Under the pieces are notes generated by a model. That model was given only the letters and a program-made list of their open reading frames with translations. It was not told the DNA's origin and made no database searches. Of a DNA stretch of 64,000 bases, positions 5,634 to 63,542 are shown one piece after another. Source of the DNA: a virus; the IMG/VR virus record IMGVR_UViG_3300020045_014031, positions 33,184 through 97,183 of that record. The stretch is one strand, 5' to 3'. A program made the position numbers and the translations under genes. The stretch's first letter is position 1. Every line of letters begins with the position of its first letter.

Positions 5634-5692
5634 AAATGAGCCTTCTAAAATAATAAGTGAGAATATCTACTTATTTTTTAGAAGGCTCATTT
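5634..5692. repeat. long hairpin made of two inverted copies of the dispersed GAGCCTTCTAAAA motif
   Basis: AAATGAGCCTTCTAAAA (5634-5650) and TTTTAGAAGGCTCATTT (5676-5692) are a perfect 17-bp inverted repeat; pairing continues inward (AATAAGT/ACTTATT) with one bulge. Confidence 0.95.
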
Positions 5693-5696
5693 GTAT

Positions 5697-5740
5697 AAAA
5701 ATAAACCCTATGTAACTAATACATAGGGTTTATTTTTTTT
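5697..5740. terminator. bidirectional intrinsic terminator between the converging gene blocks
   Basis: AAAA-ATAAACCCTATGTA-actaa-TACATAGGGTTTAT-TTTTTTT; perfect 14-bp stem flanked by A and T tracts. Confidence 0.9.
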
Positions 5741-6083
5741 ACTCGTTGAAAGAAACAGAAAGCCATTTACCTAAAGGACAATTTTCATTTATAGCTAATG
5801 TTTTACACCATAAGTTACAACCACATCCTTTTACTACTTGACCTTTTGTTCTGTTTTGATTACCGTATTTAAAATCTTGTTCTACAATACCTATTTTTAA
5901 TTGAGAACATATAGATTTATCTCTAATATCACAATTATCACATATTTTCATTCTTGAATATGCTAATTGTTCTGTTTCTTTTGGTAAATTAATAAATTGA
6001 GAAAGAAACAGATTACCACACCCTTCTGCTATGTTTTTTAATTGTAAATCTCTTACAAATTCTAAAAACTTAAATAGTATCAT
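5739..6083 (-). CDS. small Cys-rich putative Zn-binding protein
   Basis: RMKICDNC..C..GCGCNL..KT....NCPLGKW pattern, seen in Bacteroidota phage proteins. Confidence 0.65.
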   Translation of the reverse strand: MILFKFLEFVRDLQLKNIAEGCGNLFLSQFINLPKETEQLAYSRMKICDNCDIRDKSICSQLKIGIVEQDFKYGNQNRTKGQVVKGCGCNLWCKTLAINENCPLGKWLSVSFNE

Positions 6084-8664
6084 AATTAATAGAACAGTTA
6101 TTACAACATTTTTTACAATTACATTTTTCTTTTTTAACTAATAATACATTACTAATATTAGATGTTTCATTATTTAAGTGAGCTATGGTATAGTAAGCAT
6201 CACTAAAAGGAACTTCATTTATAGTAAATAAACCTCTACTATCTACTATAATTCCACTAACTATAATTTCACTATTAGAATTATATAAAGTAATAGAACT
6301 TTGAGGTGTTCCTTTACCTGTTATTGTATGATTAAAATAATTAATCAATTGAGGAGGTACTAACATACTTATATATTGAGTTATAGTAATATTTTTAGTT
6401 AATGTTACATTATACTTTTCTTCTATGTTTGTAACTACAACTGTTAGTATAGCTAATGAACTATTTGTCAATCTTATAGTTATAACATCTGTATTTAATC
6501 CTTGTTCTATAAAACCTCCTTGAATATCTGTATGAAAAACAAAAGGAGTTGAGCCTTGTAAATTTACAACATGATAAGTTTTTAACATATTTTTTAAAGA
6601 TACATTATCACCTATTATATTACCACCAGATACTCTTATTGGAGAACTTGTTATTGTTATACTTTCACTAAAATCAGATTTTAATTTATTAGGACAAGAT
6701 TGTTTAGCCGTAATAACATCACCTACTTTTAAATTATAATCTAAAGGTACTGTTAATACATTACTACTTGCATTTCCTGTTTTATAAAAGATTGAATTTA
6801 TATAAAAATCAACAACAGCTCCTATACAACAATTAACAGATAGGTATATACTATTTATATCGGTACTATTTAATACAGGAGGTAATGATTTTTCTATAAG
6901 TAAAATATTAGATGATACAGTATAATCTATTTGTGAACTACAACCATAAACATCAGATATTTCAGTATCAGAAGATACTATTACAAGTATTGTAATATTA
7001 CTATTTATAGAAGGTACTTTATTTGATGGTATTAAACAATTTAATTTATTTTCTACTAATGATTGTGTACCTTGATAAAGTATGTCTAATCCTTTAGTTA
7101 TTAGTATATTATAAGGTGGGTTATTTGTAATAGAACTTGAAAAATGAGGTTGAAAACTCAAATTTAAACCTTCACTTACTATTGATTCTACTATGTTTAT
7201 AATATTAAAAGATTTACAATCTTGTTGTTCACTTCCTAACAGTGTTGTTACATTAATATCATTAGAAATTATATCAAAAACAAAAGATGAAGATAATAAA
7301 CTACAACTTGTAGTTAAACTACTTATAAGTACTTTATATCCTGTACCTTCTATAATATTACTAAAATCAAGAACACCTTTTTTTTGATTTGTAACTTCTG
7401 TATTTACAGTAGTTAAATTACCTGTTTGTAATATTGTATTATCTGAATTAAATAAAGTATATTTTACATTTATATTATCGGGATTTAAAAAAAATACATT
7501 AAATAAGTAATTAGTTACTGTATCTCTTAATATAGTTATAAAAGATAAATTACAATCTGATGTACTTGAAATTATTATTTCATCACTAAATTCAGAAGTT
7601 GATAATTCAACTTGAGTACTTCTAACTTTATATACACCTTCAACTAAACTTACAAAAGTATATTCATTATTTGAAGTAGATACACTTTGTAAAAAAACAA
7701 AAGAAGTAGAAGGTAATACTTTACCCCATAACTCAACTACTTTATTTTCATCTTGTGAACCAAGAATAACTTTTAAGTCATTTGTATTTACTAAAAGTAA
7801 TGTAGGTGTTACAGTTTGTGATTGAGAAACAAAATTAAAACGTATTAAATTACTTTCTACTGATATATTACTATTTATATCTGCAAATTTAGCTACATAA
7901 CCGTAATTACCTACATTAGGTGTTACTTCAAGTGTTTCTGTGTTACCTCTTGAAGATAGTAAATTAGTATCTAAATTTTTTTCATACCATAGTATATGTC
8001 CTCCAGAAGGTTTACTACCTGTATATGTTAATATAGTACTATTACCTAATACAATATCATAAGTACCTCCTCCGTTTTGATGAAGAGTACATACAACTGT
8101 AGGAGGTGTTATAGTTACACTTCTTGAAGTACCTACTATAAATGAAGTTGATATACTATTAATATAATCTGTTTTACTTAAATAAAAACTAAAAGTACCA
8201 GAAATTAAAAATGTAATTTGAAAACCACCAGTAATACTTACTATTGTATAATCAATACCTACTTCTGCTGTACTACCGTTTAAAAATACATTTAATGTAG
8301 AGCCTGATTCTATATCTGTTATATTTAATTTTTCACCTATATATAAATCATCAGGTGTTAATACATTATCATTAATAAAAGTAGGTGTATTTAATGTAGG
8401 TGCTTGAGATACAGTAACAATAGAAGAAAATAAAGAAGTTCCTTCACTTCCTCTTACATAATCAAATTTTAAAGAACCTACTAAACTTGTTAAATTAGAA
8501 AAAGTTTTACTTGTTCCACTTACTATTTCACTACTATAAAAAATATTATTCAAATATGTCCTTAATGTATCACCCGTTTCTAATCCTGATACAGTAAGTG
8601 ATTGAGTACTTAACCTTGAAGTACTACTTACAATAGGAGCTGTTAATGTTCCATCTAATGCCAT
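6070..8664 (-). CDS. virion surface protein with tandem Ig-like beta-sandwich domains
   Basis: 864 aa, S/T/V/I-rich; recurrent TAPIV/TPTF/TPPTV/TPTL/PPVL starts and SxFS ends; Cys-rich C-terminus. Confidence 0.6.
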   Translation of the reverse strand: MALDGTLTAPIVSSTSRLSTQSLTVSGLETGDTLRTYLNNIFYSSEIVSGTSKTFSNLTSLVGSLKFDYVRGSEGTSLFSSIVTVSQAPTLNTPTFINDNVLTPDDLYIGEKLNITDIESGSTLNVFLNGSTAEVGIDYTIVSITGGFQITFLISGTFSFYLSKTDYINSISTSFIVGTSRSVTITPPTVVCTLHQNGGGTYDIVLGNSTILTYTGSKPSGGHILWYEKNLDTNLLSSRGNTETLEVTPNVGNYGYVAKFADINSNISVESNLIRFNFVSQSQTVTPTLLLVNTNDLKVILGSQDENKVVELWGKVLPSTSFVFLQSVSTSNNEYTFVSLVEGVYKVRSTQVELSTSEFSDEIIISSTSDCNLSFITILRDTVTNYLFNVFFLNPDNINVKYTLFNSDNTILQTGNLTTVNTEVTNQKKGVLDFSNIIEGTGYKVLISSLTTSCSLLSSSFVFDIISNDINVTTLLGSEQQDCKSFNIINIVESIVSEGLNLSFQPHFSSSITNNPPYNILITKGLDILYQGTQSLVENKLNCLIPSNKVPSINSNITILVIVSSDTEISDVYGCSSQIDYTVSSNILLIEKSLPPVLNSTDINSIYLSVNCCIGAVVDFYINSIFYKTGNASSNVLTVPLDYNLKVGDVITAKQSCPNKLKSDFSESITITSSPIRVSGGNIIGDNVSLKNMLKTYHVVNLQGSTPFVFHTDIQGGFIEQGLNTDVITIRLTNSSLAILTVVVTNIEEKYNVTLTKNITITQYISMLVPPQLINYFNHTITGKGTPQSSITLYNSNSEIIVSGIIVDSRGLFTINEVPFSDAYYTIAHLNNETSNISNVLLVKKEKCNCKKCCNNCSINYDTI

Positions 8665-8675
8665 TTTATTTTATT

Positions 8676-10817: not shown

Positions 10818-10836
10818 TTTATTTATTATTTTAGAT

Positions 10837-10870
10837 TAAAATTTCCTGTTTTTTATAGAAGAACAGGGAT
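10837..10870 (-). terminator. possible intrinsic terminator
   Basis: imperfect stem TCCTGTT...AACAGGGA in the intergenic gap with a short T tract on the minus strand. Confidence 0.4.
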
Positions 10871-10919
10871 AGTAACAATAAAAATTTTAATTAAATAAAT
10901 TTCTTATAAAATTATATTT

Positions 10920-11312
10920 TTATTCTATTGAATTTATACTATGTTCTTCACCTAAAGTTAAATCTAATATTTTATCTAAAAATACTCCAGTAATAGTTAA
11001 ATTATTCTTTAATTTATTTTTACCAATTACACTACTTATTGTTTCATCTATATCTCCAAATGGGTGTATTGTATCATCTTTAATAAAGACACTGTTTAAA
11101 AATATATAACAAGTTGCATTTCCAATTTGGTCTAAACCAATTGCATATTTTAATAATATATCTTCTAAAAATACTAAGATATTACTTCTACTTTTCCAAG
11201 TATAAAATAAAGCATATAACAATGCTAATGGAATTATAATAAAAGATAATATTGTAGCTACAATAGCTAAAATTAAATTATTGAATAGTTTCATTATACT
11301 TAATTTTAACAA
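10920..11312 (-). CDS. conserved phage membrane protein
   Basis: N-terminal TM; AIGLDQIGNA..FGDIDETISSVIGKN motif of a widespread uncharacterised phage family. Confidence 0.6.
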   Translation of the reverse strand: MLKLSIMKLFNNLILAIVATILSFIIIPLALLYALFYTWKSRSNILVFLEDILLKYAIGLDQIGNATCYIFLNSVFIKDDTIHPFGDIDETISSVIGKNKLKNNLTITGVFLDKILDLTLGEEHSINSIE

Positions 11313-11321
11313 AATTTATTT

Positions 11322-11789
11322 TTAATTTAAGTTGTAAACTATTTGTTCATCCGAAATAATATTATCTACTTCTGTCATTATTATTTCATTTAAAGCATTT
11401 TCATCTATTTCACATTTAAAATATTGCAAAGAATCTTGAAACTGAAACAAAGACAATCCAACATTTAACACCTGAGTATTTTGCAATATCCTTTCATGTG
11501 TTATAAGCATAGGAAAAAAATCAACTGGAATAGCTCTTGTTTCTTGAATAAATATTTTTTCATCAAATTCATTATTTAAAAATATTTTCCTTCTAACAAG
11601 TTTCCATGTTATTTTAATACAATCAATTAATTCAAAAACACCGTCTTGATTTGGTATTTCTGATTTTATTTTTTCTGGAGATAATTTTTCAATTATCATA
11701 AAATTAGGCTTCATTAAACCCAATTGAGCGTCTTCCTTTTCGATTAAAGGTATTGCTATAAATCCTGCTTTAAATAATCTTTTATCCAT
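11322..11789 (-). CDS. hypothetical protein, possible tail spike chaperone
   Basis: 155 aa, immediately downstream of the tail spike gene; function is positional inference only. Confidence 0.45.
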   Translation of the reverse strand: MDKRLFKAGFIAIPLIEKEDAQLGLMKPNFMIIEKLSPEKIKSEIPNQDGVFELIDCIKITWKLVRRKIFLNNEFDEKIFIQETRAIPVDFFPMLITHERILQNTQVLNVGLSLFQFQDSLQYFKCEIDENALNEIIMTEVDNIISDEQIVYNLN

Positions 11790-11790
11790 T

Positions 11791-14637: not shown

Positions 14638-14639
14638 TT

Positions 14640-15903: not shown

Positions 15904-16132
15904 TTTTAATTTGATTTAAAAATATAACTAATTGTTTTTGAGATAAAAAAGAAATATTTGAGCCTTCTAAAATAAATGAGGTTAAGAATAAATTATCTAA
16001 TTCTTCATTATCTACTTGTTTCTTTGAAGCACTTATTGATTTATATTTATCTGAAATATGTTTATTAAACATAGTATTTGATAAATTAAGTAAAGCGTTT
16101 TCTTTTTTATCACATATAAATTTATCATTCAT
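15890..16132 (-). CDS. hypothetical protein
   Basis: 80 aa; contains a motif-encoded FILEGS. Confidence 0.55.
   Translation of the reverse strand: MNDKFICDKKENALLNLSNTMFNKHISDKYKSISASKKQVDNEELDNLFLTSFILEGSNISFLSQKQLVIFLNQIKNEHF
15960..15974 (+). repeat. dispersed motif copy GAGCCTTCTAAAATA
   Basis: exact core; reads ILEGS in the 80 aa gene. Confidence 0.9.
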
Positions 16133-16134: not shown

Positions 16135-16156
16135 TCCCTTATATTTTAGAAGGCTC
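16135..16156 (-). repeat. dispersed motif copy
   Basis: GAGCCTTCTAAAATATAAGGGA on the minus strand; encodes EPSKI-stop of the 249 aa gene; 21 bp identical to 56916-56936. Confidence 0.9.
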
Positions 16157-19900: not shown

Positions 19901-20564
19901 GTATTAGCAGTAAATCATCAGAATCTCTAATATCATCACCTACTAAATCTTTTATTCTTAACCAAAAATCCATTAAAAAAGAAAGTGATTTGATTTCATC
20001 AACACTTGTAGTTTTAAAATTATAATTACTTACAATATTATTAAAGTAATTATAATGTTTATTTGCTACAATCATTAAATTTACTAATGGATTATTAATA
20101 TTACCTAAAGAATTAATATCACTTGCTAAATCATCTAATCTAAGTTGTCTTGATTTATTAAATAAACTACTATCTTTCTCTTGAAATATGTTATTTCTAA
20201 TTATATTTAACTCAGATATTACTTTATTTAAAGGTTGTGTATTAACAATACTTGGAGCAAAAAAAGTATTACTATCTTCAATATCTTGAAGTATATTTAC
20301 AAACTCATTATAAGAAGGTTCTTCTTTTGATTTAAGCCTTTTAAAAAATAAGGAAGAATATAGTTTAGATTTTATTCTTATAGCTTCATTTTCAGAATTT
20401 GTACTTTGAAGTATCTCTTGATATAGTTTACTATCATTCCCTTGGAAATCTTTATCAATAAAGTTTCCGTTATTTCTTGCAAAAACAAGATGTGCAAGCT
20501 CTTCTCCAAGAACTTGCACTGTTTGTTTATAAAATTCGTTATTTTTATTTGGACAAATATTCAT
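16920..20564 (-). CDS. giant virion cargo (ejection) protein
   Basis: 1214 aa helical protein downstream of the vRNAP; N-terminal CPN motif; C-terminal GRLIGQFK.WMP...GRYLTY and hydrophobic segments typical of the third crAss cargo gene. Confidence 0.75.
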   Translation of the reverse strand: MNICPNKNNEFYKQTVQVLGEELAHLVFARNNGNFIDKDFQGNDSKLYQEILQSTNSENEAIRIKSKLYSSLFFKRLKSKEEPSYNEFVNILQDIEDSNTFFAPSIVNTQPLNKVISELNIIRNNIFQEKDSSLFNKSRQLRLDDLASDINSLGNINNPLVNLMIVANKHYNYFNNIVSNYNFKTTSVDEIKSLSFLMDFWLRIKDLVGDDIRDSDDLLLIQSKFDSLSKKFKDIEIQSFIKESNIGEEIKKENLTTDISDRNVVSSFLLGSGRTANIAVQAINKFLDLAYVSKKRESNSLQDILIDIEKIVKENKIDTKDFLTVNKEGKEPDIRLIKAFTSSWMENERVLLLRKNRANDLATSKEVWKDQSLNHKVQGTVLNLKNLFIETPEGYEINKDNLELEIKSLSDKISVENKELVKYVIQEKINQQLSLLNKYFEDVKTRKEISSEEDFNKWNNINNPFLYIENLNKDKPNYLSSRKYVVSLPVLKQFWNIDFENIFKDNKKLEVYNNLSKVIDNLKSKLPANIRNRISEDFIPVVDSYLVKEGLSFQEQVKDLLTLPNFTASDNINDYKEIPINFIPEIGEHKNSANFTKDKGDFSTNLIPVLKLFGDSVYHYYYYTQIKAPVLLGQSILKNATPIQKDYKGNIVIERGKGTDKKFDKGQGLSNELTLLEETINHVMFLEKTKPEINIFSNYDVTDLSGVLAIINENKKALKNKKIYSPFTEKELNDEIELVNNVQKNINDSLSKGVFSKLNSIKNQFTKKYRGENYDSAETLYNYYLEKLDTSRQLRREGKITKEEFIQTNDLIQKRIRELNRSSIYFSKITDYLIKVRRTISLGLNPFSAGRNFVGGYFNGIVNAGQEYDSVVFTKNVGKVTSLMISNIVKDKQEAFKVFKLAQKLLVQDNVIDLQGLDEKTWFDNYGFKLMEKSEQAIRYALMISILEKEDLYTKFDNDGNWIGEKQGNNIIEQDVINNIILKIQRINDIVMGDTHSFKLINKSFVGRLIGQFKVSWMPEAFASRLEKEHYDYKLNRTIKGRYLTYSDLGFTGFLVGTLQVYKSWIFGSKDYVHLKNNKGRKITETDANNLVKNTIELSLIMSFMTLGYILRYLADDEEDDALLTFIVNQSLLIERDLTVISPSTVSEIVAGNLIPAYSVVTNLQSLIPATVKIISDDDYDFDKYLYKLGKLVPVLNIASQFKYQSEHFVDDLN
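20334..20348 (+). repeat. degenerate dispersed motif copy
   Basis: AAGCCTTTTAAAAAA; reads FFKRL, a different register from the ILEGS copies. Confidence 0.55.
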
Positions 20565-23500: not shown

Positions 23501-26500
23501 TCAAGATAATTTATAGGTAATTCATTTAACTGTTGTTTATAGTTTTCTAACAATTCCCTGTCTTCTTTTAGTAGCTTTACAACTTTAGAAAAAGTATTTT
23601 TCTTATTGACATCTTCTATATATGAAACAGTAAAAGCATTATAAACTTGTTTTTTAAACTCACTATCTATATTTTTAATTTTATTATATATAGTTCTTGT
23701 TTCACCTTTATATTTTGATTTAACTGATTCTGCTCCTATACCTGTTGTATATGTTAAATCTCTAAGGTTAGTTAAATCATCAATATTAAAAGATTCAATA
23801 ATTTTTTCTAAATTTTCAGAATCCAAATCACTTTCAATAAAATAAGAAATAACTTTTTCTTTTAAATTCTTTAAGTATTTGTCAGAAGTAATTGCTTGAT
23901 AATATTTTTCTATTTGTTCATTTACTTTTTTAAACTCTTCTTCTGATAATTTATTATCTTGAAGTTCTTTTTCTTGATTTTTTATTTTTTGTTTTAATAA
24001 TATATAATCATTTTTTAATTGTAAATCAGGATATTTTTTTACTGGTTTATACTTTTTTTTGTAAACATAAAGTTTATCAATATCAAAGTCACTACCCATT
24101 TGTTTTGTAATCTCAGCAGGTACATATATTATATCACCTCCTATATTAGGTAAAAACCCTACAATTTCCATAGGTAACTGTGAACTATGTGATTGGTTAG
24201 GTATCCTTGCTCCTACAAACTTTAATAGTTCTTTATTTATATCAACACTTCCTTCATTTATAAACTGATTTATATCAATTCTTTGTTCTTTATTAAAGAA
24301 GTTAAAAGGAACTAATACTTGTGCAGGAAGTATTTTTGCTGTAAAATTATCTGAGCCTTCTAAAATAATAGAAGAATTAACTAACTGTTGGATTTGCTCA
24401 TTATTTATTTTAAAAGGCTCATTTGTTTTAGATAAATCTAACTGTTCTTGTGTTAAATATATCTCTATTCCAAATTGGTCATATAACTCAGATATTACAG
24501 GTCTTAATGGTCTTAATCTTTTATCATCCCAACCTTTAACTTTTTTAACATCATTAGGTACTTCACCTGTTTTATCCATTTTACCAATACCTAAACTTGT
24601 AATTTGAACAAATGACTTACCGTTAATTTTAACTTGAATAGCTTTTCTAACAGCAGAAGCTATTTTTGATTGTATCTGATTAGAACTTCTATTAAATAAT
24701 AAAGGAATTAACATTTCATTATTATCATCTAATTGCAACTCTAATTTTTGATTAGTTGTTAAATCAGAAGTTGTTCTAAATATATAATCTCTTAATTTTG
24801 TTTTATCAACAAAATCTTCATAAATACCTAACTCATCTTTTAATTCATCAAAAGATATATCTAACATTCTTTTACGAATATCTTCTTTAATTAAGCACAT
24901 TTCCTCACCTGTTTTCTTTTCTCCTTTATATTCAAATACAGGTTCTTTAATTGAAGTTAATGTATCAAGAATTAATTTATTTAATTGAGTTACAAAAGTA
25001 ATTTTTTCTTTTGTTTCATCATAAGGTATTTCTTGCTGTATTAAAAAAGCATCAGCATTCATTACTCTCATTGATTTAACTAATGAATCACCTTCATTTT
25101 TATAAATCCAATTACCGTTAATATCAAAAGGTTCAAAAAATACTACTGGATTACCTGATTTACCTGCTGTATCTAAACTAACTTGGTCAATACCGTTTTC
25201 TTCTATTAGTTTTCTTAAATTATCTAATTCAGTACCAGAAGTTATATTAGGTATTAAAGGAATTAAAGATGATTTTACATAATGAATATAACTATATACC
25301 CTATTAACACCTAATGGAGTAAACTTTCTATCTGTTTCCACAGGTTTCATAGCATACATATAAGATAGTTCTTCTGCATTTAAAAATTCACCATCTTTCT
25401 TTTTCATTATTTGACTATAAACTCTTGTAGGTATTCTACCGTAATCAAATAGTATATTAGCTATTCTTTTAACAGAACAAAATTGAGAAGCATCCGAAGG
25501 GTCAATTTGTCCTTCTAACTCTCCTTTCTTGTTTTGCTTTAATCCGTAGTAATTATTTAAAAATAAATCTTTATACTCTTCTGTAAATGTATTAGGTACT
25601 TTAATTGTTATTGCTTTATAAGTTAAACTTTGATAACTACCTGCAATCCCAGGGGCTATATCTTTAGCTAATCTTTTAGTATATTCATCATAAGTTCTAT
25701 TTATAGTATCTACTATTGTATCACCTTCTTTACCTTTATAAAATAAAGCAGGGTCACCAGATGTAAACATAGCTAACGATATATTAAAAATATGTTTATT
25801 AATAGCATACTGAGATATACTACTAATATCTTCTTTTGATATTAATTCAATAGGTAATTTATTTTTTTGAATAGAATCAAAAACATTATTAATTATAATA
25901 TCACTTCTATAACTAATTACTTTATTTATTACATCAAGATACTTTTCTATTATGTTATCGTTCTCATCAAGAATTTTATCATTAATTGTATCTTTGTCTA
26001 TCCATAATAAATCTATTTCTTCTTTAGAAAATAAATTACTACCGTCTATTGACTTAATATTACTTAAAATCTCATAATTAAAATCAGGTAACAAGTAAAA
26101 TATTCCTGCTCCCTTTTTAACTTGTGCTGTTACATCTAATTTATCTTTATTAACTACTCTAATATATTCGGCTTTAAATATATAAGCATATTCATTACCC
26201 ATTTGACTAAAAGGTATTTTAGGTATTCCCGAATGAAAAGGAGTTGTTTTCTTGTCAGATTTAGTTAAATCAAAATAATTAGCTGTACTTTTACCTTCAT
26301 TTCTAAAGTTTTCAATTTCAGTAACTAACTGTTCTCTAAAACTCATATTATCTCTTGTAATACCTTTTTTAGATTTTTCATTCTTAATAGCTTCAAATAA
26401 ACCTAACTTATACTCTTCTAAAACATTGTTATTGTTAATTACATTTCTAAAAAAGAAAGAGTTACTACTAAATAAATCTTTACTTAATGTATCCCTATAG

Positions 26501-28218: not shown

Positions 28219-31200
28219 TATTCTGTACAGATTTTATTAAATAATTTATTTGCATCTTCCATAGATTGTACTTTAGATGCTTCTTCTAAATATTTGTTTT
28301 TAGAATTTTCTGATAATTCATCATTCAATATAACATTTATATTTATAAATTCATAAACAAAGTTCTTATACTTTTCAACAGAATTTTTAAATGATTCTAA
28401 AAAAGAAGAATTGTTTTTGTAATCATCATTAATTGAAAATACAGAATCTAAAACATCTTCGTCTTCTTCATTAGATTTCTCACCTATATTTTTAGAAGGC
28501 TCATTTGTTTGTTCAATAACTTTATAATTATAATCAAAATTAACCACAAAATCTTTAGTATAAACCAATTCTTTTTGTCCTTTGTTATTTATTATAAAAT
28601 TATCTTTATTTACATCAAAATTAGTTTCTAAATCATTCTTAATATAATCATAATAAGTAAGGTTATTTCCTCCTTTAATTACAATTTCGTTATTTTCTAA
28701 TACAGGATATTTAAAACCTTTTGTTTGACCATTATTTAAAAAATCATTATCAAGAGTAAATAGTTTATTCAATAATTCTGTTTCTAAATTATCTATAAAT
28801 TTTTTAAACCCTTGTTTATCTAAATTATAAGAACTATTACTATTAGCAGGTTTTAAAGCAAATAAATTAACTCCTTTTTTACCGTTAGCATCTGACATAT
28901 AAATTAAAGAAGGTAATTTATTTTCTCTTCTTGTTTTTATATCGTTAATATAATTTACTGTTGTAAAATACTGTTGAATAAATTTATTAAAATTAGTTAA
29001 TATATCATAGTTTAATACTAAATCATTAGATATTTTATTTAATTTATCTAATGATATTTTATCTCCTTCAACAGTACCTTTATAGTATAAAGTAAATAAT
29101 TCTTTTAAAGTATTTATTTTATCTTTACTAAGTGTTTTAATTGTTAAAGGATATACTTTAGTTAAACCATTAATATCAGGATAACTTAAAACAGCAAGTA
29201 GTTTTTTATTTATTGTACCATTTATTTCACTTTCAATTGAAGGGTATAAAGTACCATTAACCAATGAATGAACTTTAACTCTACTATCATTATTATCTAT
29301 AATACCTTCTAAAGATTGTCTTGTTTTTTGAGTAATTGCTCTACCACCTGATTTTCTTTTAAGATTGGTTTTAATAACTACATTAGAATTAGTAGAAAAC
29401 AGTTCTCTTATTTTTTTAATTTTTTGTTCGTTATAATTTCTATAATTAATAGAAATTATAACACCTTCTTGTGTTACAATACTTTCTTTATCTAATTTTA
29501 AATAACTTATTTGATTTAATACATCAAATAATTCATTTAGTATTTTTTGATTTTTACCTTCTGTATTATAATCTTTAATGTTGTTTTTACTATCTTTAAT
29601 GTACGTAGTATTAATAAATTCAATAGTTGGTAAATAACCAATTTTTTTGTCTGAGCCTTCTAAAAATATAGCTATCGGAAGCTCATCATTAATTCCTACT
29701 TGATAGTTTTTATCAATTCTTAATTCTAATGAAGTACCCTTTTTTAACTTAGCTGTTTCTAAAGCATCTGCTGTTAAAGAATTATCATCTCTTATTTGAC
29801 CATATTGAAATCTAAACATATCTAAAGTAAAAGGTTCTTCATACATTTCTTCTTCTTTTACTTCATTGTTAAAATTATCAATAATTTCTTCTGTTGTTTG
29901 TTCTTGTGTTTCTTCAATAAAAGAGGGTTCTTCATTAATAGTTTTAGAAATAACAAGTTCCTCAACTTTATCTTTAACTTCTTCTTGATTTTGTTTAGCT
30001 AAAGTTATAGCATAACTTTCTTCAATTTTATTTTTAAATTCTGTAAAAGACTTTCTTAGTTCTTTTTTTATTTTTTTACTATCAAACATTAAATCTAATA
30101 CTTCATCTGAAAAAGAAAATAATCTTAATTGTAATTTATATTTTTCTTCACCTGATAACTCTTTTATATTTTTATGAATATAGTCTAATAAAGTACTTGA
30201 TAGATATTCTAAATTGTAATCACCAGAATCAAGAGAAGACTTAATAAAATTAAATACAAATGTTAAAATTCTATCATTTTTGTTTTCTTTAGAACCAAAT
30301 GTACTTTTTATCTTATTTTCTAATTCTTGTATTTTTTTAGAAATAACTTTTTTCTTTTGTTCTCCTTTAGTAATTATTTCTTTTTTCCTTAATGTTTGTT
30401 TTTTAACAGGTTTTTTAACAATAGGTTGTTCTATTAATTCTTTTAATAAATCATCATATTTAGCATTAATTTTTATAACAACAGGTTTTTTATTAAATTC
30501 ATCAACTGTTTCATTTCCAGTAATTTCACTATCTAATTCTTCTTGTCTTCTTTTTTCTATATCAGCTTTTTTATCTTCTAAACTATTATTATTTTTAGTT
30601 TGTTCTGAAACAACAACAGGTTTTTCTGATTCTTTGCTCTCTTCTGCTTCTTTCTCTTCTTTATTAATTTTACGTATTTCTTCAAGTAACTTATTATTAA
30701 AATCATTATCACTTTCTTTACCTTCTCCTTGTGGAATTTCAGACTCTTCTTGACCAAATGTTCTTAATACTTTAGGTTCTAAATCATCAGGAACTTCTAT
30801 TTTTTCAACTTCTTTTTTAGTTTTATCAACTACTTCTTGTTTTTCTAAAGGAGTTTCTTTTTCTTTAACTATTTCTTCTTTAGCTTGTTGCTTTTCTTCA
30901 TTAACTTTTTTAAGATAATCTTGTAATTCATTTATTCTATTTTTTCTAAGTTTTATTAAAGTAGTAATATCAGATAAATTATTAAAATAATTTACAAGAC
31001 TATTGTAAAAACTATCTTTTTTATTTGTTTGTACATTAATTTCTTCAAGTTGTTTTACTTCTTCCTCAATTCTTTTAATTTCATTAACAATTTGCTCTTC
31101 TTGTTCTTTGTTTATTTTTTGTAATTTATCTATAAAGTAACTATCCTCATTTGCTTTTCGAGCTTCATCATAAGAATAAATATTGTGCTGAGCTTCTAAT

Positions 31201-45414: not shown

Positions 45415-46044
45415 TTAATTGATTAATAATTGATTTTTATTATTTTCTCTTTTTAATCTATATTTTTCACTGTCGCCAGAACTTGCAGTTATGTTTTGCT
45501 GTGCTAACTCACTGATTAATATATGATAAAACTCTTTCAATTTACAATCATCTGTAATTGTTATTGTAGGAGGTTTAGTTATGTAAAGTAAATATATTTG
45601 TTTGAAATCAACACTATCTGATTGAATTTTCAATGTATTTGAGAACTGTAATACATTTACAAATGTAGTATTTCCTTTATAGAAAGGTAAGTTGTTAATA
45701 GTGCTTGCTAAATTACTTTTTATTTTATTTAACTTTAGTTTTCTATTATCTACTTTAACTTCCCCAGATAATAAAATATAACAATCATCAGGTATTTCAA
45801 AATTACCAGAATTATTCTTGTTTACAAATGAGCCTTTTAAAATATTAGTGAATAACTCTTGATTAATTTCATCAATTTCATAAAAACCATTAGTGTTATC
45901 AGGTCTAATATTATTCCTTATTAATTCATATTGAGCATCATTTAGATACCAAATAATTTCCTCATCTTGTAATCTTTTAGTTGAGTTACCATTAAGTTTA
46001 TTAAGCTTAACGGTAACATCAATTATCATTTCTTTTGTTTTCAT
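45415..46044 (-). CDS. tail ring / adaptor protein
   Basis: LQDEEIIWYLNDAQ..YITKP..CKLKEFYHILISELA, typical of crAss ring proteins. Confidence 0.65.
   Translation of the reverse strand: MKTKEMIIDVTVKLNKLNGNSTKRLQDEEIIWYLNDAQYELIRNNIRPDNTNGFYEIDEINQELFTNILKGSFVNKNNSGNFEIPDDCYILLSGEVKVDNRKLKLNKIKSNLASTINNLPFYKGNTTFVNVLQFSNTLKIQSDSVDFKQIYLLYITKPPTITITDDCKLKEFYHILISELAQQNITASSGDSEKYRLKRENNKNQLLIN
45820..45848 (+). repeat. dispersed motif copy (extended)
   Basis: GTTTACAAATGAGCCTTTTAAAATATTAG, 27/29 identical to 55523-55551. Confidence 0.9.
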
Positions 46045-49774: not shown

Positions 49775-52090
49775 TTATTTTTTAGAAGGCTTATTCTGAT
49801 TCTTTTTTAATTCAGTAACATTTTTTTCATCTGCAATTTGTTTATTAACTGATATTTCTCTTTCTTTAACATCAAGTTTTCTATTTTCAATTGCTTGTTT
49901 CATTTGTACTTCTAAAATATCAGGTATTCCATCTTTATCGTTATCAATTTTAGACATACCAGAGGATAAATTATTTTCTCTAATTTCTTCTAATTTGTTT
50001 TGATGTTTTAAGTTTTCTAATTGTATATCAAGTTCTAATTGAAATCTATTAATATCTTTTTGTTGTTCAATTAGTTCTTTTTCTCTTTCATGGTCACTTT
50101 GAGCTGTTTGTTCTAATTGTTGTTGATTTCTTTCAGCTATTTTATTTAATTGTTTTTTAAGTTGAGAAACATTATCAGATGTTAAAATTTCAATAACTTC
50201 TAAAGGTGAATTTTGATTAGCTGTTTTAGCATAAGCTTTAGCTTCATCTAATTCTTTGTTTTCTTTAGAATTGTTTACAGGTACAATTTGTAATTTACTA
50301 AACCATATTTCTTCTGGTGTTAAATTTAGTAATTTAAAACCGTCATCACTATAGGTTGAATTATGTTCATTATCTAATAATAAATACTTTGCTATTTCTA
50401 AAAAGTATTCAACTTGTCTTAATGTATAATCATCAAATTTTTGATAAATATAATCAATAATAATACTACTTTGATTTATACTTGCATTAGTTGTACCTAC
50501 TTGGTCAGAAGCGGACATTTGACCTTTTATCTGTCTTGATATACCTGTTATATCATCCCATGCTGATTTATATGAATTAGCTAAATTAGTAAGTTCTGAT
50601 ATATCTTTCAATGTACTCATATCAACAGATTGATATTGATTAAAAGTTTTATCAGCTCCTAATTGGTCACGTTTAATAAAAGCATAACCAAGCATTTCCA
50701 TATAATACATAAACTTTTCTTCATCCCATCCTTCGTCCTTTGGAATTACACCATAATCTAAAACAAATATTCTACCTTTATTTTTAGAAAGCATTTTTTC
50801 TATCATAAAGTTACAAATTAAAATCATAGATAAATAAGGAATACCTATTTTTAATAATGAATAAACTTTCTCATCGTAATAATGAGCAAATTTAACACCG
50901 TTATAAGGCATCATTAGTTTTCCTGTTACACCATTAACACAAGGATATTCATATTCTCCCATATTAAGATATAAATCTACAATTCTATCTGTTTTATAAA
51001 TAGTATTTTTCCATTCCCACTCTACTGTTTCATATCTTTCATCTACTGGATATGTTTCATCTACTTCTTTAGATGTTAATACTCCGTCTTCATCATAGTA
51101 AACTACTGTACCAACTTTCTTTCTTGATTTCCAAAAACAATGATATACAGGTATCTTACCAACAGTAGAACTTGCATAATTTGAAGCTATTACTTTATCT
51201 GCAATATATCTTTTAAATGATTCTGCTGATATAGCTGAATATCTATCTAACTTTGACCAATCATCTTCTGTTAGTTTATATTTATCTACAACTTCACTTA
51301 CAGTTAATAATTCTAATTCAACTTGCCATTCTGCTTCTGATATATACTTATTATTAACAGATTTATCATATTCAAAGAATCTTCTATCTACTCTTCTATA
51401 CTCTAAATTACCGTTTTTAATTCCTGTATAACAAATAGGTTCTCCGTTAATTAAATAATCAAGAAATTGTTCAGATAGTATCTCGTGAACATGATTTTGA
51501 TTCATTAATTTATTTAAGTACCTTTGTGCTTTATCAGATAGTTCATCTTTGTAAGATAATGAAAAATTAACTTTTACTGTTTCTGGTGTTAAATCAACTT
51601 GTTGTTTTTCACCTTTTTCATCTGTAATTAATTGAGTAAATCTTTTAATTATTTGAGTACTAAAATTCTTTTTAAAATTTTCTTGAAACTCATTATATAC
51701 ATTAGGGTCTAAATTTACACAACTCCAATTAAAAACTCTTTTTCTGTAGTTAGAATTAATATAATTCAAATTAGAATTAAGAATATTAAAAGGTCTAAAT
51801 TTAGCTCCTTTAGCTTTATAATTTTTATTTGTACTATTTAAAGGGTTTGTAAAAGCTTCAAAAGTTGATTCTGTTAATTCGTTATGGTATAATTTTCTTA
51901 AATTACCAAATTCAGTTCTTACTTCATTATTTGTTCCGTTGTAGCCTACTAAAATATCAGAGAAAGCAGATAACCCTATAAATAAATCAGCAGATTTTCT
52001 AAACCATTCATAATCATTTTTTATTTTATCTTCATAACTTATTCTTTGTAAAGGTTTTATCCTTATTTCTTGTCCTTCATTGTTTTCCAT
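49775..52090 (-). CDS. portal protein
   Basis: 771 aa after TerL; GISRQIKGQ..S..VG motif and C-terminal DNDKDGIPD as in crAss portals. Confidence 0.9.
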   Translation of the reverse strand: MENNEGQEIRIKPLQRISYEDKIKNDYEWFRKSADLFIGLSAFSDILVGYNGTNNEVRTEFGNLRKLYHNELTESTFEAFTNPLNSTNKNYKAKGAKFRPFNILNSNLNYINSNYRKRVFNWSCVNLDPNVYNEFQENFKKNFSTQIIKRFTQLITDEKGEKQQVDLTPETVKVNFSLSYKDELSDKAQRYLNKLMNQNHVHEILSEQFLDYLINGEPICYTGIKNGNLEYRRVDRRFFEYDKSVNNKYISEAEWQVELELLTVSEVVDKYKLTEDDWSKLDRYSAISAESFKRYIADKVIASNYASSTVGKIPVYHCFWKSRKKVGTVVYYDEDGVLTSKEVDETYPVDERYETVEWEWKNTIYKTDRIVDLYLNMGEYEYPCVNGVTGKLMMPYNGVKFAHYYDEKVYSLLKIGIPYLSMILICNFMIEKMLSKNKGRIFVLDYGVIPKDEGWDEEKFMYYMEMLGYAFIKRDQLGADKTFNQYQSVDMSTLKDISELTNLANSYKSAWDDITGISRQIKGQMSASDQVGTTNASINQSSIIIDYIYQKFDDYTLRQVEYFLEIAKYLLLDNEHNSTYSDDGFKLLNLTPEEIWFSKLQIVPVNNSKENKELDEAKAYAKTANQNSPLEVIEILTSDNVSQLKKQLNKIAERNQQQLEQTAQSDHEREKELIEQQKDINRFQLELDIQLENLKHQNKLEEIRENNLSSGMSKIDNDKDGIPDILEVQMKQAIENRKLDVKEREISVNKQIADEKNVTELKKNQNKPSKK
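49778..49792 (-). repeat. dispersed motif copy
   Basis: AAGCCTTCTAAAAAA on the minus strand; encodes the last residues KPSKK of the portal. Confidence 0.85.
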
Positions 52091-55522: not shown

Positions 55523-55556
55523 GTTTACAAATGAGCCTTCTAAAATAATAGAAGAA
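55523..55556 (+). repeat. dispersed motif copy, intergenic, best match to consensus
   Basis: GTTTACAAATGAGCCTTCTAAAATAATAGAAGAA, just upstream of the HU-like gene start. Confidence 0.95.
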
Positions 55557-55980: not shown

Positions 55981-55981
55981 T

Positions 55982-56308: not shown

Positions 56309-56341
56309 TTTAATTTAGTTTTAACTATGAGTTTTATTTAT

Positions 56342-56830: not shown

Positions 56831-56843
56831 TTTATTTATTTTA

Positions 56844-57248
56844 TTAGTGAATTGAATCTAAACCTATAAATTCATCATCTACATTTTTAGGTACAAAAGG
56901 AATCTTTTTAAGTTCTCCCTTATATTTTAGAAGGCTTATACAACTTCTAATTAATTTATTATCTTCTAATACTTTAAATGAAGTACATTTTTCAAATAAT
57001 ACTTCTTGTACATCTATATCTTCAAAATCAAAATCTTCAATTTTACTATCTACATATTGCTCTGGTGTACTATGTAAAATAAGTAAATTTTCTAATTGAT
57101 GTTCTAATGCTTTTAAAGGTTTGTTTTCTTTATCAGACATTAAGTTATACCCTAAAGGGTGTGTAATTACTTGTTGTTCTTTAGGATATTGTTTAATACA
57201 TTCTAAAGATATTAAAATAGCTTGAATTAATTCTGTATTATTTTCCAT
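56844..57248 (-). CDS. hypothetical protein
   Basis: 134 aa ORF. Confidence 0.55.
   Translation of the reverse strand: MENNTELIQAILISLECIKQYPKEQQVITHPLGYNLMSDKENKPLKALEHQLENLLILHSTPEQYVDSKIEDFDFEDIDVQEVLFEKCTSFKVLEDNKLIRSCISLLKYKGELKKIPFVPKNVDDEFIGLDSIH
56916..56937 (-). repeat. dispersed motif copy
   Basis: AAGCCTTCTAAAATATAAGGGA on the minus strand; reads SLLKYKG, a different frame from the EPSK copies. Confidence 0.9.
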
Positions 57249-59672: not shown

Positions 59673-59989
59673 TATTTCTCAAATTTAAAATTCTTTTTAT
59701 TTTCTTCTCTAACTCTTAACGTTTCCTCTTCTACTCTTTCTTTTATTTCTTTATTATCCTTTAATAAATCAAAAAGAAATGTTTCTTTAGTAAATTTAAA
59801 CTCAGAATACAATTCTTCTTTGTATTGAAATTCTTCTGTATCAGCATACATTGCTAATGTAAGTCTTTCTTTATATAATCTAATATAAAGAATAGTTATT
59901 TCTGGGTGTTTAAATACTAAGTAGTTTGTTTTCTTAGCTACTTGTCTAAAACCTTGTTGAGTAAGTAGTGATATAAATTTCTCTTTCAT
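59672..59989 (-). CDS. hypothetical protein
   Basis: 105 aa, coupled at both ends. Confidence 0.6.
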   Translation of the reverse strand: MKEKFISLLTQQGFRQVAKKTNYLVFKHPEITILYIRLYKERLTLAMYADTEEFQYKEELYSEFKFTKETFLFDLLKDNKEIKERVEEETLRVREENKKNFKFEK

Positions 59990-61011
59990 TCAAAATTATA
60001 TTTAGATTTTACTTTTACTTCTTTATTAGGTTTGTTGATTAATTGTTTTCTATTATTCTCAAAATAGAATTTAATCATATCTTCAAACTCTTCTTTTAAG
60101 TAAGGTACTTTTTTAACTGTTACTTTTTCCTTACCTAATAAACTAACATCTATGTTTTTAGTCATCCCTAATTTCTTAATATCATGATGAGTAAAATTAA
60201 GATTTCTAACTACATAACCATATTCTTCTAATATTCTTGCATAACCTGATATTTGTAAACAGTAATGTATAAAATTACAATCGTCTAAATGATTAATCGG
60301 AAACTCCATTTTATTAAAGAAATTACTTTCTTCTATTTTTTCATTAGTTTTATAATCATCTACATCAATGTATCTAACCCCATTGATAGTTTCAACATAA
60401 ACTTTATCAGCCTGTCCTGTAAGAAAGATAGTGTATTCTGAGCCTTCTAAAATAATAGAGGAAAGATATAAGAGTAGCTCAGGATGATAACCATCTTCTA
60501 AATTTGTTAAATCTTTAGAATATCTTATTTCTTTACTTCCTTGACTTATATTATTAAGAGCTAAACTAACTTCTGTATTACCTATTACAGCTTTCTTTTC
60601 TTCGTAAGCTTTTTCTTCTTTATGTTCATGAAACTCAGTACCTACATTACAAGCATTATCTTTCTTATCTTGCCAATCTTGTTTTACTTCTTTAGAAGTA
60701 TTATTAATTACTTTATTCCAATCTACTAATTTACCTATACAAGATTTTAAAAACAAAACTCTTTCTTCTTGGGTATCAAATGAATCATGTCTTTTAAAGT
60801 TAAATCCGTGTTGTTTACATAAAGCACTAAATTGTTTCCTATCTTCTATTTGTAATTCTCTTCTTACAGCAGTATATATAGACCAGAAATGCTCTTGATA
60901 TTTCTGTTTAAATTTACCAATAAATGTAGTCATTGATAAACCTTGTTGTACTTTTATATTATCAACTAACTCATAATAGTTATGTCCTAATTCTTCAAAT
61001 ATTACTTGCAT
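59986..61011 (-). CDS. PD-(D/E)XK exonuclease (RecB/Cas4-like)
   Basis: GTEFHE, ELLLY, GQADKV, IDVDDYKTN, Y.LQISGYA motifs. Confidence 0.85.
   Translation of the reverse strand: MQVIFEELGHNYYELVDNIKVQQGLSMTTFIGKFKQKYQEHFWSIYTAVRRELQIEDRKQFSALCKQHGFNFKRHDSFDTQEERVLFLKSCIGKLVDWNKVINNTSKEVKQDWQDKKDNACNVGTEFHEHKEEKAYEEKKAVIGNTEVSLALNNISQGSKEIRYSKDLTNLEDGYHPELLLYLSSIILEGSEYTIFLTGQADKVYVETINGVRYIDVDDYKTNEKIEESNFFNKMEFPINHLDDCNFIHYCLQISGYARILEEYGYVVRNLNFTHHDIKKLGMTKNIDVSLLGKEKVTVKKVPYLKEEFEDMIKFYFENNRKQLINKPNKEVKVKSKYNFE
60439..60463 (+). repeat. dispersed motif copy
   Basis: TGAGCCTTCTAAAATAATAGAGGAA; reads SSIILEGS, the same peptide as in the unrelated RNAP. Confidence 0.95.
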
Positions 61012-61658: not shown

Positions 61659-62003
61659 TTATAAGTTTATTAATTGAATAGTATGCTTATATAAATCAAA
61701 TTTTATGTTTTTAAAAAATATACCATGTTCTAATTTTAAAACAAGTATTACTTTATCTAATAGTATTATACTTGCTTCTTTTGATTCTGGATACCAGTGG
61801 TCAATTACTAATACAATTTTCTTTTCAAATAATAATTCAATTATATTTTTTACTATCAATGTTGTATTTCTTGATTTACTGTTTTCTAATATCTTATTAT
61901 AATCAGGTAATACGCAATCAATACCTCTCATCCCATGTTCTATTTTATCTAATACTTTACTTGATACATAAGGTTTTATTTTAATTAATTCTTCTGTTCT
62001 CAT
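61659..62003 (-). CDS. hypothetical protein
   Basis: 114 aa ORF in the operon. Confidence 0.55.
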   Translation of the reverse strand: MRTEELIKIKPYVSSKVLDKIEHGMRGIDCVLPDYNKILENSKSRNTTLIVKNIIELLFEKKIVLVIDHWYPESKEASIILLDKVILVLKLEHGIFFKNIKFDLYKHTIQLINL

Positions 62004-62341
62004 TTTAATTTGTTATTACTTATTTCAATTAATAATTTCTTTCTTTCACTTGATGAACCTTTAAAAGCGTACTTAGGATTAATTTTATAAGTTTGTGTAT
62101 TAGGTTGAGCTTTATATATTAGATTTAATTTTAATAAAACACTTGTTGAATTACTATATGAGCTTAATGCTTTACCTGTTTGTTTTACTATTTCATTTTT
62201 TAACACCTTACTGATTGTAAGTAATGTACCGTCTGAATAGTGAGAAACTAAATAAGCAAATAATTCAATATCAGACTTACTTAATTGATTTTCTAATAAT
62301 ACATTCCAGAAGTCTATATCAGTTATTATTTTGTTTTTCAT
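62000..62341 (-). CDS. RepL-like winged-helix DNA-binding protein
   Basis: LSKSDIELFAYL..HTH..LLKLNLI....TYKINPKYAFKG. Confidence 0.7.
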   Translation of the reverse strand: MKNKIITDIDFWNVLLENQLSKSDIELFAYLVSHYSDGTLLTISKVLKNEIVKQTGKALSSYSNSTSVLLKLNLIYKAQPNTQTYKINPKYAFKGSSSERKKLLIEISNNKLK

Positions 62342-62810
62342 TTTGTTTATTATAATGTTTTAATCTATCACCAGAATATACAAAAGAAGTATTAACACAA
62401 TAAACCTCATCATATAGTGTAACGTTAAGTATATTATTAACTAATAGTTCTTTTATAGCTTTATTGTAATCTTTACTTCTTAATTTAGTTTTTTCTAAAA
62501 ATAAAGCTTTATTAATCCATAAGTAATCTTTTCCTGTTTCTATTTCATAGGTTATAAAAATAAATAACCAATTAGCTTCTCTACCTAATGTTAATAGTAA
62601 ATCTCTGTTTTGTTTATTTTCTTTATATAACTTAGTAAAATCTGAATTTTCTACTTTTTTATTTATAGAAGTATTTATTTCTGTTACACCATCAGAAGAG
62701 TCAAATGAAAAACTATTCTTAGATTTAAACTCTCTTATCTTAATATCTTCTAACTTGAAAGAAGATTTTTTAATTTCTTCTTCATCTATAATTGGCTTCT
62801 TCTTATTCAT
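62319..62810 (-). CDS. RepL-like winged-helix protein
   Basis: FTKLY..AIKELLVNNIL....VYCVNTSFVYSGDR. Confidence 0.65.
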   Translation of the reverse strand: MNKKKPIIDEEEIKKSSFKLEDIKIREFKSKNSFSFDSSDGVTEINTSINKKVENSDFTKLYKENKQNRDLLLTLGREANWLFIFITYEIETGKDYLWINKALFLEKTKLRSKDYNKAIKELLVNNILNVTLYDEVYCVNTSFVYSGDRLKHYNKQNEKQNNN

Positions 62811-63231
62811 TTATCAAATTGTTTGGGTAAAATTCTTTTCTACTACCTTTAAACATAAACTCAGGGTTAATCCAATAAACATCTTTAATTATTGTCTTAG
62901 CTATAATGTTATGTTTACATAAGTTATTTACCATAGATTTAAAAGTATTTAATGATTTAATACTATATGTACTCATAAAATGTTCTTTATTTACAATTAC
63001 ATATTCGTTGTTTTCTTCTAAGTTAAAAGGTAAGTACCAGTATAGTTTTATGCTATTATTTAATTTAAAAATTGTTTCTTTAAAAGATTCTTTTCTATAT
63101 ATATTTGTATTCCATATACCTATACTATTTTTCTCATCTTCTAATGTAAATTTTAAATCTTTAATAAAAGGATTAGTACCTATTTCTTTTAGCTCTTTAT
63201 CTGTTAGTGTCAATTTTTTGTTATCTTCCAT
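62803..63231 (-). CDS. RepL-like winged-helix protein
   Basis: NLCKHNIIAKT...DVYWINPEFMFKGSR. Confidence 0.7.
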   Translation of the reverse strand: MEDNKKLTLTDKELKEIGTNPFIKDLKFTLEDEKNSIGIWNTNIYRKESFKETIFKLNNSIKLYWYLPFNLEENNEYVIVNKEHFMSTYSIKSLNTFKSMVNNLCKHNIIAKTIIKDVYWINPEFMFKGSRKEFYPNNLINE

Positions 63232-63313
63232 ATTTTTGATATATTGTTAATTTATTAAAGATAATGAAAAATATTGACAAACTGTCAAAAATATGTTATT
63301 ATTTTATTTAACG

Positions 63314-63453
63314 TAAGTATTTGATAATCAATGAATTGACAAAATGATAGTTATAAGTTATTGATAATCAGTTAATTATAGTTTATCGAGGAGGTGAATA
63401 TAATACTATTCCCTGCTTGATGATAGGTTAATTAATTGATAATCAGTTAGTTA
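63314..63453. promoter_or_regulatory. three quasi-palindromic TAAnTnnTTGATAATCAnTnAnTT boxes
   Basis: TTGATAATCA at 63321, 63361 and 63436 with conserved flanks. Confidence 0.7.
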
Positions 63454-63542
63454 TGTATTTTAAAATGTCAGAAAGTGATATTTTTGATTTTATATTTTAA
63501 AAGGCACAAATAACAAAAATAAAAATAATTAAATGTCTATGT

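Follow-up and report, generated by a model that had tools for sequence, protein, structure and literature searches.

A long, asymmetric DNA word recurs along both strands of a crAss-like phage genome represented by IMG/VR record IMGVR_UViG_3300020045_014031, and very probably constitutes a cis-acting signal that is selected at the DNA level, is strand-specific and co-evolves in sequence with a phage-encoded reader. The 64,000-nucleotide (nt) stretch analyzed here (the window) corresponds to bases 33184–97183 of one 97,183-bp contig, and window coordinates are used throughout unless "genome" is stated. A position matrix recovers about 26 strong copies of the word, TGAGCCTTCTAAAAWAAWAGRGG, genome-wide and on both strands, 18 of them within genes. 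We tentatively read the word as a phage-private, strand-polar signal recognized by a DNA-tracking phage enzyme according to a Chi-like logic. The feature is real, is unpublished as far as we have found, and is one lineage's version of a crAss-wide class. An earlier note on this DNA had proposed a cis-acting signal at the DNA level, distinct from a stoperator array laid along transcription and without a published description; these points and the general inference stand, and its binding-site, anchor and nick or recombination options are candidate readings. No description of the word in crAss-like phages was found in the literature, and the published PhicrAss001, PhicrAss002 and phi14:2 papers make no mention of such words.

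The contig has a G+C content of 24%. A major head protein, a portal and a large terminase are recognized by PHROG profiles; the portal shares 24–27% identity with Crassvirales portals, and a 2550-aa protein that contains DFDID aligns with crAss-type virion RNA polymerases (vRNAP). The genes form two convergent blocks, a + strand replication arm with replication and nucleotide metabolism genes (genome 273–38814) and a − strand structural arm with virion genes (genome 38922–96414), in a layout syntenic with Cellulophaga phage phi14:2; annotation covered about 50 of the 115 genes. Gene leaders are A-rich and lack a Shine-Dalgarno sequence, and the genome holds about 11 ordinary intrinsic terminators, a combination that fits a Bacteroidota host. 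By read and contig matching, relatives of the phage are present in freshwater and aquatic metagenomes, and none of the sequencing runs listed with matching sequence is recorded as RNA. A portal-protein search for related loci returned relatives of 25–31% identity in IMG/VR and a single fragment in JGI metagenomes, and megablast against GenBank phages gave no match.

All 13 exact AGCCTTCTAAAA cores reported earlier are present in the window at the positions given there, seven on the + and six on the − strand, as against none in 100 dinucleotide shuffles. With up to one mismatch, 19 sites are found where 0.83 are expected. Eight further exact cores lie in the 33 kb outside the window, giving 21 in the whole genome, and the conserved stretch extends to about 23 bp, TG-AGCCTTCTAAAA-WAAWA-G-RGG. 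Three C>T variants (20335+, 24408− and 45831+) are real, with fitting flanks, and the weaker copy at 63493–63507(−) reads TGTGCCTTTTAAAA, with two mismatches; the other one-mismatch sites (43668−, 51943+ and 54595+) have low matrix scores, and 54595 is not kept by relatives. The earlier note had counted at least four reading registers, and the gene offsets indeed give EPSK/KPSK, SLLK, (I)LEGS and FKRL, with EPFK in addition. In the SLLK register the downstream TAATAG is replaced by TATAAG or AAGAAAG, so that stop codons are avoided while the A-rich and purine pattern is kept. Intergenic DNA makes up 6% of the genome yet holds 8 of the 26 strong copies (31%).

Selection acts on the DNA and not on the encoded peptides. 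The ILEGS copies use the rare codon GGC, which accounts for 1.6% of glycine codons in this phage, and AGC and GAG make up 1.7% of serine and 11% of glutamate codons, respectively. After 200 synonymous shuffles of every gene, 7.6 exact cores remain compared with the 21 observed, and about 7 of the 7.6 are untouched intergenic copies; from the protein sequences, fewer than one of the 14 exact coding copies is expected. Together, the synonymous shuffles and the rare codons argue for selection on the DNA.

The genic copies arose in place. The inverted pair 24354+/24408− in the vRNAP gene encodes EPFKINNEQIQQLVNSSIILEGS; at this position, vRNAP homologs that are 61%, 44% and 40% identical possess an equally long segment from which the motif peptides are absent. 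The homologs of the 861-aa protein, at both of its sites, and of the lysine-rich portal tail likewise lack the motif peptides, and gp84 homologs, which fall in the same 40–61% identity range as those of vRNAP, have longer segments there, again without them. Since the homologs possess the segments without the motif peptides, the copies are substitutions in existing coding sequence and not insertions of small elements; an in-frame mini-element in the vRNAP gene was rejected for this reason. A miniature mobile element or its footprints, or else a signal derived from the host (a host Chi, an uptake sequence or a host promoter), is a largely refuted explanation to which we give hardly any credence. 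Its mobile-element form can draw on the inverted pairs with variable spacers and on contigs of relatives that join the inverted copies flanking a 1.36-kb segment, but the short side of these joints measures only 21–23 nt, and in vRNAP and gp84 the copies are not insertions when compared with homologs.

The host-derived form finds no counterpart in bacterial genomes. A 13-mer of the word occurs 0–3 times per genome in 401 Bacteroidota genomes, the level of a reversed control, compared with a density of one word per 4.6 kb in this phage, a contrast that would suit a reader encoded by the phage rather than by a host; no sampled bacterial genome is enriched, and a host genomic word was rejected. 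The corresponding word of PhicrAss002, described below, is likewise at background (0–2 per genome) in 151 Bacteroidales genomes. In IMG/VR, no contig carries the word as a multi-copy repeat, with eight single matches to the 19-mer pattern, and 14-mer scans of viral and genome collections gave single chance matches only, among the matches listed. Re-reading the phi14:2 promoters upstream of g070, g075 and g108 revealed an A-tract, TTG at −33 and TAnnTTTG at −7, with g110 less clear. A host sigma-A promoter or the published crAss middle-late promoter was rejected as an identity for the word, which has the A-tract, TTG and TAnnTTTG on neither strand and is in this respect unlike the phi14:2 middle promoters; that consensus is not enriched between genes of this phage. 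A stable hairpin was also rejected: the folding energy of solitary copies is −3.6 kcal/mol, compared with −2.5 ± 2.3 for random 40-mers, and their pairing register is not constant. An Rfam search of the word matched no family.

An indication of a co-evolving reader comes from a sister phage on an 85,082-bp contig, compared through three of its proteins rather than through DNA. Relative to the present phage, its portal, vRNAP and 861-aa protein are 79%, 88% and 76% identical. At all four orthologous exact sites the peptide differs in the way that a single recurrent base change, AGCCT[T>A]CTAAAA, would produce, so that KPSK is replaced by KPTK, ILEGS by ILVGS, ILEGS by YLVGS and EPSK by EPTK; at no exact site do these three proteins retain the version found in the window, which is kept in a phage on a 60,553-bp contig and in a 90%-identical portal. 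Four independent identical changes would be very unlikely without a common cause, which suggests that the specificity of a reader has shifted or that the sites share a template. Judged from these peptides, the T>A change at four of four sites is concerted "dialect" evolution between sister phages.

A concerted change of this kind bears on the possibility that the word spreads by molecular drive, without benefit to the phage, through biased gene conversion or preferential recombination of word-bearing fragments. Such drive has been proposed for the uptake sequences of Pasteurellaceae (USS) and Neisseriaceae (DUS), whose genome pattern is nearly identical to the one described here: a 10–12-nt core with extended flanks, similar numbers in both orientations, even spacing, coding copies confined to a few reading registers, inverted pairs at terminator positions and lineage-specific dialects. 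The tail-fibre region, which phages often exchange, is without a copy, as drive would also allow. Uptake sequences, however, belong to competent bacteria and serve DNA import, whereas the word is found in a virulent-type phage with no uptake process and in no sampled bacterial genome above background. The same base altered at four of four orthologous sites demands a changed reader or template instead of neutral spread, phages of 70–90% protein identity keep sites at orthologous positions, the phage accepts rare codons in genes that are essential, and we know of no process that drives the spread of such a word in phages. We therefore consider molecular drive improbable.

When each strand is considered by itself, the copies are evenly spaced. 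The 15 copies on the + strand are separated by gaps of 4.0–10.3 kb (coefficient of variation, CV, 0.32–0.33; P<1e-4 versus random placement), and the 11 copies on the − strand by gaps of 3.6–13.6 kb (CV 0.33–0.34; P about 4.5e-4); with exact cores only, placed on a circular map, spacing is still even on each strand (P=0.006 and P=0.010). With both strands pooled, the arrangement is much less regular (CV 0.61). One-mismatch variants are located in the largest gaps between exact copies, which suggests that they are functional. Adjacent copies are oppositely oriented in 18 of 25 cases (P=0.02), and 9 of 15 have an opposite-strand partner within 1.4 kb, above expectation (P=0.004). Exact copies in the structural arm are oriented independently of gene direction (five sense, six antisense); in the replication arm, each of the five solitary exact copies has the sense orientation. 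Equal strand use in genes and even spacing per strand speak against two options raised earlier, a small-RNA target and an orientation-blind architectural site. As the earlier note had observed, the tail-fibre region has no strong copy: none is found at 5687–15961, the largest gap on the + strand (10.3 kb). The tail-fibre genes at 6070–14637 form the longest motif-free stretch of the + strand and have a G+C content of 0.26–0.27, compared with 0.22–0.24 nearby, which would fit a recently exchanged module.

Four tight inverted pairs were identified in the genome (genome coordinates 4858/4885, 28703/28715, 38822/38859 and 57537/57591, with spacings of 27, 12, 37 and 54 bp), and one of them is a plausible terminator ahead of a rIIA-like gene. 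These pairs are relevant to the nicking option of the earlier note. Under this reading, each copy would mark a specific position at which one strand of the virion DNA is interrupted, comparable to the nicks of T5, phiKMV-like or tf/LUZ24-like phages. The signal is strand-specific and spaced per strand, as nick sites would be, and nick-associated phage motifs of similar size have reportedly been published (PMC3517423 and PMC11780129). Nicking of both arms of pairs lying 12–54 bp apart, however, would produce staggered double-strand breaks, so that nicking at every copy is unlikely, and no nickase is found among the roughly 50 annotated genes; this explanation is accordingly very improbable.

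A second group of readers to be weighed comprises phage DNA-binding proteins, RepL-like winged-helix or IHF/HU-like, for which the copies would be operator-like sites serving silencing, looping or compaction. Asymmetric 13–17-bp sites dispersed genome-wide, including within genes, and in part arranged as inverted pairs, are known from L5 gp71 (stoperators) and P1 C1 (operators, some of them inverted pairs). Two RepL-like winged-helix genes (62000–62341 and 62803–63231, − strand) are the first of the virion block and adjoin the 770-bp non-coding right end; their products are candidate sequence-specific readers or regulators. A co-evolving binding protein would also account for the dialect change, and the pairing of opposite-strand copies points the same way. 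A non-directional binder of double-stranded DNA, on the other hand, predicts even spacing of the pooled copies, contrary to the CV of 0.33 per strand and 0.61 pooled, and in PhicrAss002 the pairing is not significant (P=0.16), which led us to drop it as a shared property. L5 stoperators follow transcription, and both the L5 and P1 systems act in lysogenic repression; the present word is independent of transcription, is evenly spaced per strand and is accompanied by no lysogeny functions among the annotated genes. The earlier remark that these sites, unlike stoperators, are not oriented with transcription agrees with the orientations in this phage and in PhicrAss002. Overall, operator-like sites seem an unlikely explanation, though less so than drive or nicking.

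We return to the tentatively preferred reading, a polar signal for a DNA-tracking enzyme. Even spacing per strand, near-alternation and independence of gene direction mean that an oriented copy lies near any point, whichever way the DNA is followed. In the proposed mechanism, a phage-encoded enzyme that moves along DNA or starts on it would read the word on one strand or in one direction, and selection would keep a correctly oriented copy within about 4–10 kb of any point on each strand, despite the rare codons this requires. A helicase-nuclease or recombination machine would enter at DNA ends or breaks and would be switched by a word in the right orientation; phage DNA would then be spared and recombined, and host DNA, which lacks the word, would not. 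We infer that a moving enzyme reads the word, just as we do the identity of that enzyme and the event at the site. The word is just long enough for absence from a host genome.

Candidate machinery in this phage includes a RecD-like SF1 helicase, an RNase H-fold protein that is a possible exonuclease and a SNF2-type helicase. The RecD-like helicase is encoded separately, in the replication arm (genome 15286–16857). In other crAss-like contigs, RecD/PIF1-type SF1 domains (PF13604, PF05970 and PF13538) are fused to giant vRNAP-like virion proteins (P0064, P0088, P0097, P0098, P0100, P0104 and P0124).

The likeness to Chi sites, read by RecBCD or AddAB, lies in an oriented word that is read in one direction, is found on both strands and within genes regardless of coding, and marks its own DNA. 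Several points weigh against a Chi-like function. Known Chi sites are 5–8 nt long and are read by a host enzyme, in whose genome they lie, co-oriented with replication; the present word is 14–23 nt long, is not enriched in the sampled genomes of the host phylum, switches strand from one copy to the next in most cases (18 of 25), recurs at even intervals and differs from one sister phage to another. To our knowledge, no phage-private Chi has been described, and even spacing is not known for Chi sites. Moreover, the Chi-like model offers no explanation for the layout shared by the dialects of different phages (a C/T block, an A-rich stretch in two of three dialects, and GGAG-like purines), which is closer in appearance to a start site for a polymerase. 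The sense orientation of the five solitary exact copies in the replication arm would suit a promoter, but a bias of this kind is absent from PhicrAss002.

Two of these dialects come from cultured crAss phages; the earlier note had proposed testing related phages for a motif of their own. PhicrAss002 and PhicrAss001 each carry one, and the phenomenon is therefore not private to the present genome. PhicrAss002 (MN917146) contains 32 copies of T-TCCCCC-R-TA-R-AGGAG (TCCCCCRTARAGGAG), on both strands and inside genes, with a per-strand CV of 0.38 and 0.37 (P=2.5e-4 and 5e-5). Adjacent copies are oppositely oriented in 26 of 31 cases, in neither arm does orientation depend on the direction of the genes, and an inverted pair (64739/64775) lies at the junction of the convergent blocks, as in the present phage. 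In PhicrAss001 (MH675552), CTTCTGGAG occurs 27 times where 0.36 are expected, on both strands, with even spacing on the − strand (P=0.002) and P=0.08 on the + strand. These words are of the same class as the present one by copy number, use of both strands and genic location but differ in sequence and length, and the present word is much richer in A/T. All three clear dialects consist of a C/T-rich block followed by GGAG-like purines, with an A-rich spacer that measures 9 nt in this phage and 5 nt in PhicrAss002 and is missing (0 nt) from PhicrAss001.

Nearly every crAss genome examined has some enriched word, and for this reason the idea of tracing a reader gene by phyletic profiling was dropped. 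For cr1_1 this is only the 9-mer CCARAGTAA, present in 29 copies on both strands without even spacing, and the phi14:2 genome has no clear comparable word. Among 84 other crAss-like loci of 20 kb, only short 9-mers were enriched; a window of this size is too small to judge the presence of a word, given that the word of the present genome is itself visible in only two of five such chunks. In 20-kb stretches of IMG/VR loci L250, L278, L294, L297, L315 and L269, the both-strand 9-mers are TAATTTAGA (18 copies), TAATTCAGA (9), TAATCCAGA (7), AGCTTTAGA (8) and AGCTTCTAA (8). Several of them resemble the reverse complement of the present word (TTTTAGAAGGCT), and they may be shorter dialects. Packaging is of the pac type in PhicrAss002 and involves short terminal repeats in PhicrAss001 (PMC8042965); because the two phages differ in packaging and both carry a word, a link with headful packaging was dropped.

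The shared layout supports the main rival explanation, in which a polymerase of the phage itself, most likely vRNAP reading one template strand, would start at the word as at a promoter of the T7 group; the RNAs made there would be used for expression, for DNA entry driven by transcription or for the priming of replication. We regard this as a possible but rather doubtful alternative. A C/T-rich block, an A-rich stretch and purines (GRGG here, GGAG in PhicrAss002 and PhicrAss001) recall the specificity block, TATA and GGGAGA of the T7, T3 and SP6 promoters, and promoters of this group (K11 included) are likewise about 20 nt long, a size that the 14–23 nt of the word fits, number 15–30 copies and differ in concert between sister phages. 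A concerted one-base change of dialect is the expected product of promoter-polymerase co-evolution. Five of the 12 sense copies lie at most 100 nt upstream of a start codon, among them the copies that lead into the capsid operon and into the non-coding region at the left end, and the five sense copies of the replication arm mentioned above agree with such a role. DNA that is single-stranded or denatured is transcribed by the vRNAP of phi14:2, for which promoters have yet to be defined (10.1101/2020.03.07.982082); the single-subunit two-barrel RNA polymerases of P23-45 initiate at 14 and 7 sites that are marked by long, strongly conserved motifs (10.1101/2022.12.01.518664).

Against a start signal, T7-group promoters all point along and lie upstream of genes, whereas half of the structural-arm copies are antisense within genes, most strong copies are genic and spacing is even on both strands. 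Convergent pairs would fire into one another, sense copies are not placed after the roughly 11 intrinsic terminators, and in PhicrAss002 orientation is nearly alternating and unrelated to gene direction. Finally, early transcripts have been mapped in only one crAss-like phage, phi14:2; no motif common to their upstream regions was reported (10.1101/2020.03.07.982082), and no comparable word was found in its genome.

The individual sites in the window are as follows. At the junction of the convergent blocks, an intergenic inverted pair is formed by exact cores at 5639..5650(+), its left arm, and 5676..5687(−), its right arm; a separate, complete, ordinary bidirectional terminator at 5697–5740 adjoins it. 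Beyond the tail-fibre genes, exact cores are located at 15961..15972(+), antisense within an 80-aa open reading frame (15890–16132), and at 16144..16155(−), sense, at the stop codon of gene 16139–16888, whose product ends in LEPSKI. The C>T variant AGCCTTTTAAAA at 20335..20346(+) is antisense in a 1214-aa gene, in the FKRL register, and fills a gap in the + series. Within the vRNAP gene, the exact core at 24354..24365(+) is antisense, encoding SSIILEGS, and the C>T variant at 24408..24419(−) is sense, encoding EPFK in a segment that is not an insertion. At the former site, ILEGS is kept in P0037, the vRNAP of the 60.5-kb relative, and is ILVGS in the 85-kb relative (portal P0001 bears on a different site); at the latter, EPFK is kept in three of three close phages.

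A 1826-aa gene contains exact cores at 28490..28501(−), sense, EPSK, with the start codon of vRNAP 270 nt downstream, and at 29654..29665(+), antisense, in the LEGS register. The gene of the 861-aa protein has two as well, at 36183..36194(−), sense, EPSK (EPTK in the 85-kb relative), and at 37215..37226(+), antisense, ILEGS (YLVGS in that relative). The C>T variant at 45831..45842(+), antisense in gene 45415–46044, fills the largest gap among exact + copies. At the 3' end of the portal gene, the exact core at 49780..49791(−) encodes the terminal KPSKK, and 48 nt downstream of it begins the gene that comes before the one for the major capsid protein; portal relatives have KPSK at 90% identity, KPTK at 79% and neither at 52%.

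Two exact cores form an inverted pair around a 1.36-kb accessory segment. One arm, 55534..55545(+), is intergenic and antisense in the leader of gene 54881–55513; the other, 56925..56936(−), is sense in gene 56844–57248 and encodes SLLKYKGE, with TATAAG in place of TAATAG. Further on, the exact core at 60441..60452(+), antisense in gene 59986–61011, has the top matrix score of the genome (37.8), and the intergenic weak copy at 63493..63507(−) is at a position that would extend the − strand series, 6.6 kb past 56925. Outside the window, the first copy (genome 608+) is followed downstream by an 867-bp non-coding region (genome 1236–2102) with hairpins and one tRNA, which recalls the highly transcribed early intergenic left-end regions of phi14:2.

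The accessory segment itself (55546–56924) holds three small genes, among them tandem 108-aa paralogs at 55654–55980 and 55982–56308. A possible anti-defence sponge is hinted at by a weak match of the second paralog to the Acb2/Tad1 hairpin domain (25.3 bits, cutoff 27). In the contig of one relative, the sequence passes directly from 55977 to 56306, leaving a single paralog copy, and the joints 55551>56913 and 55555>56916 in contigs of relatives, which link both copies of the word, reflect either a hairpin in those relatives or the absence of the segment. Elsewhere, two long structured non-coding stretches that interrupt replication genes (genome 12160–13223 and 21387–22332) look like group I introns, although Rfam gave no match at the gathering score on either; one of them contains a GIY-YIG homing-endonuclease gene (12393–13061) beside an RNase H-fold gene, which may be a polymerase exonuclease piece.

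Few viruses of the human gut are as abundant as members of the crAss-like group, which are also common in water, yet little is known of how they handle their DNA once it has entered the cell. A private word that is evenly kept on both strands, even where essential genes must use rare codons for it, and that changes in concert between sister phages points to a central, undescribed sequence-reading machine. The cultured PhicrAss001 and PhicrAss002, with words of their own, make the question directly testable, and the dialects could be used as lineage markers and for finding the reader through correlated changes. It is conceivable, though we think it unlikely, that the words form a self-marking system throughout Crassvirales, in which each lineage has its private strand-polar word, repeated every few kb along both strands, and a co-evolving, phage-encoded DNA-tracking enzyme tells phage from host DNA. 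If so, self-marking would be a viral counterpart of Chi with fast-changing specificity, by which phage DNA would be spared and recombined and host DNA destroyed.

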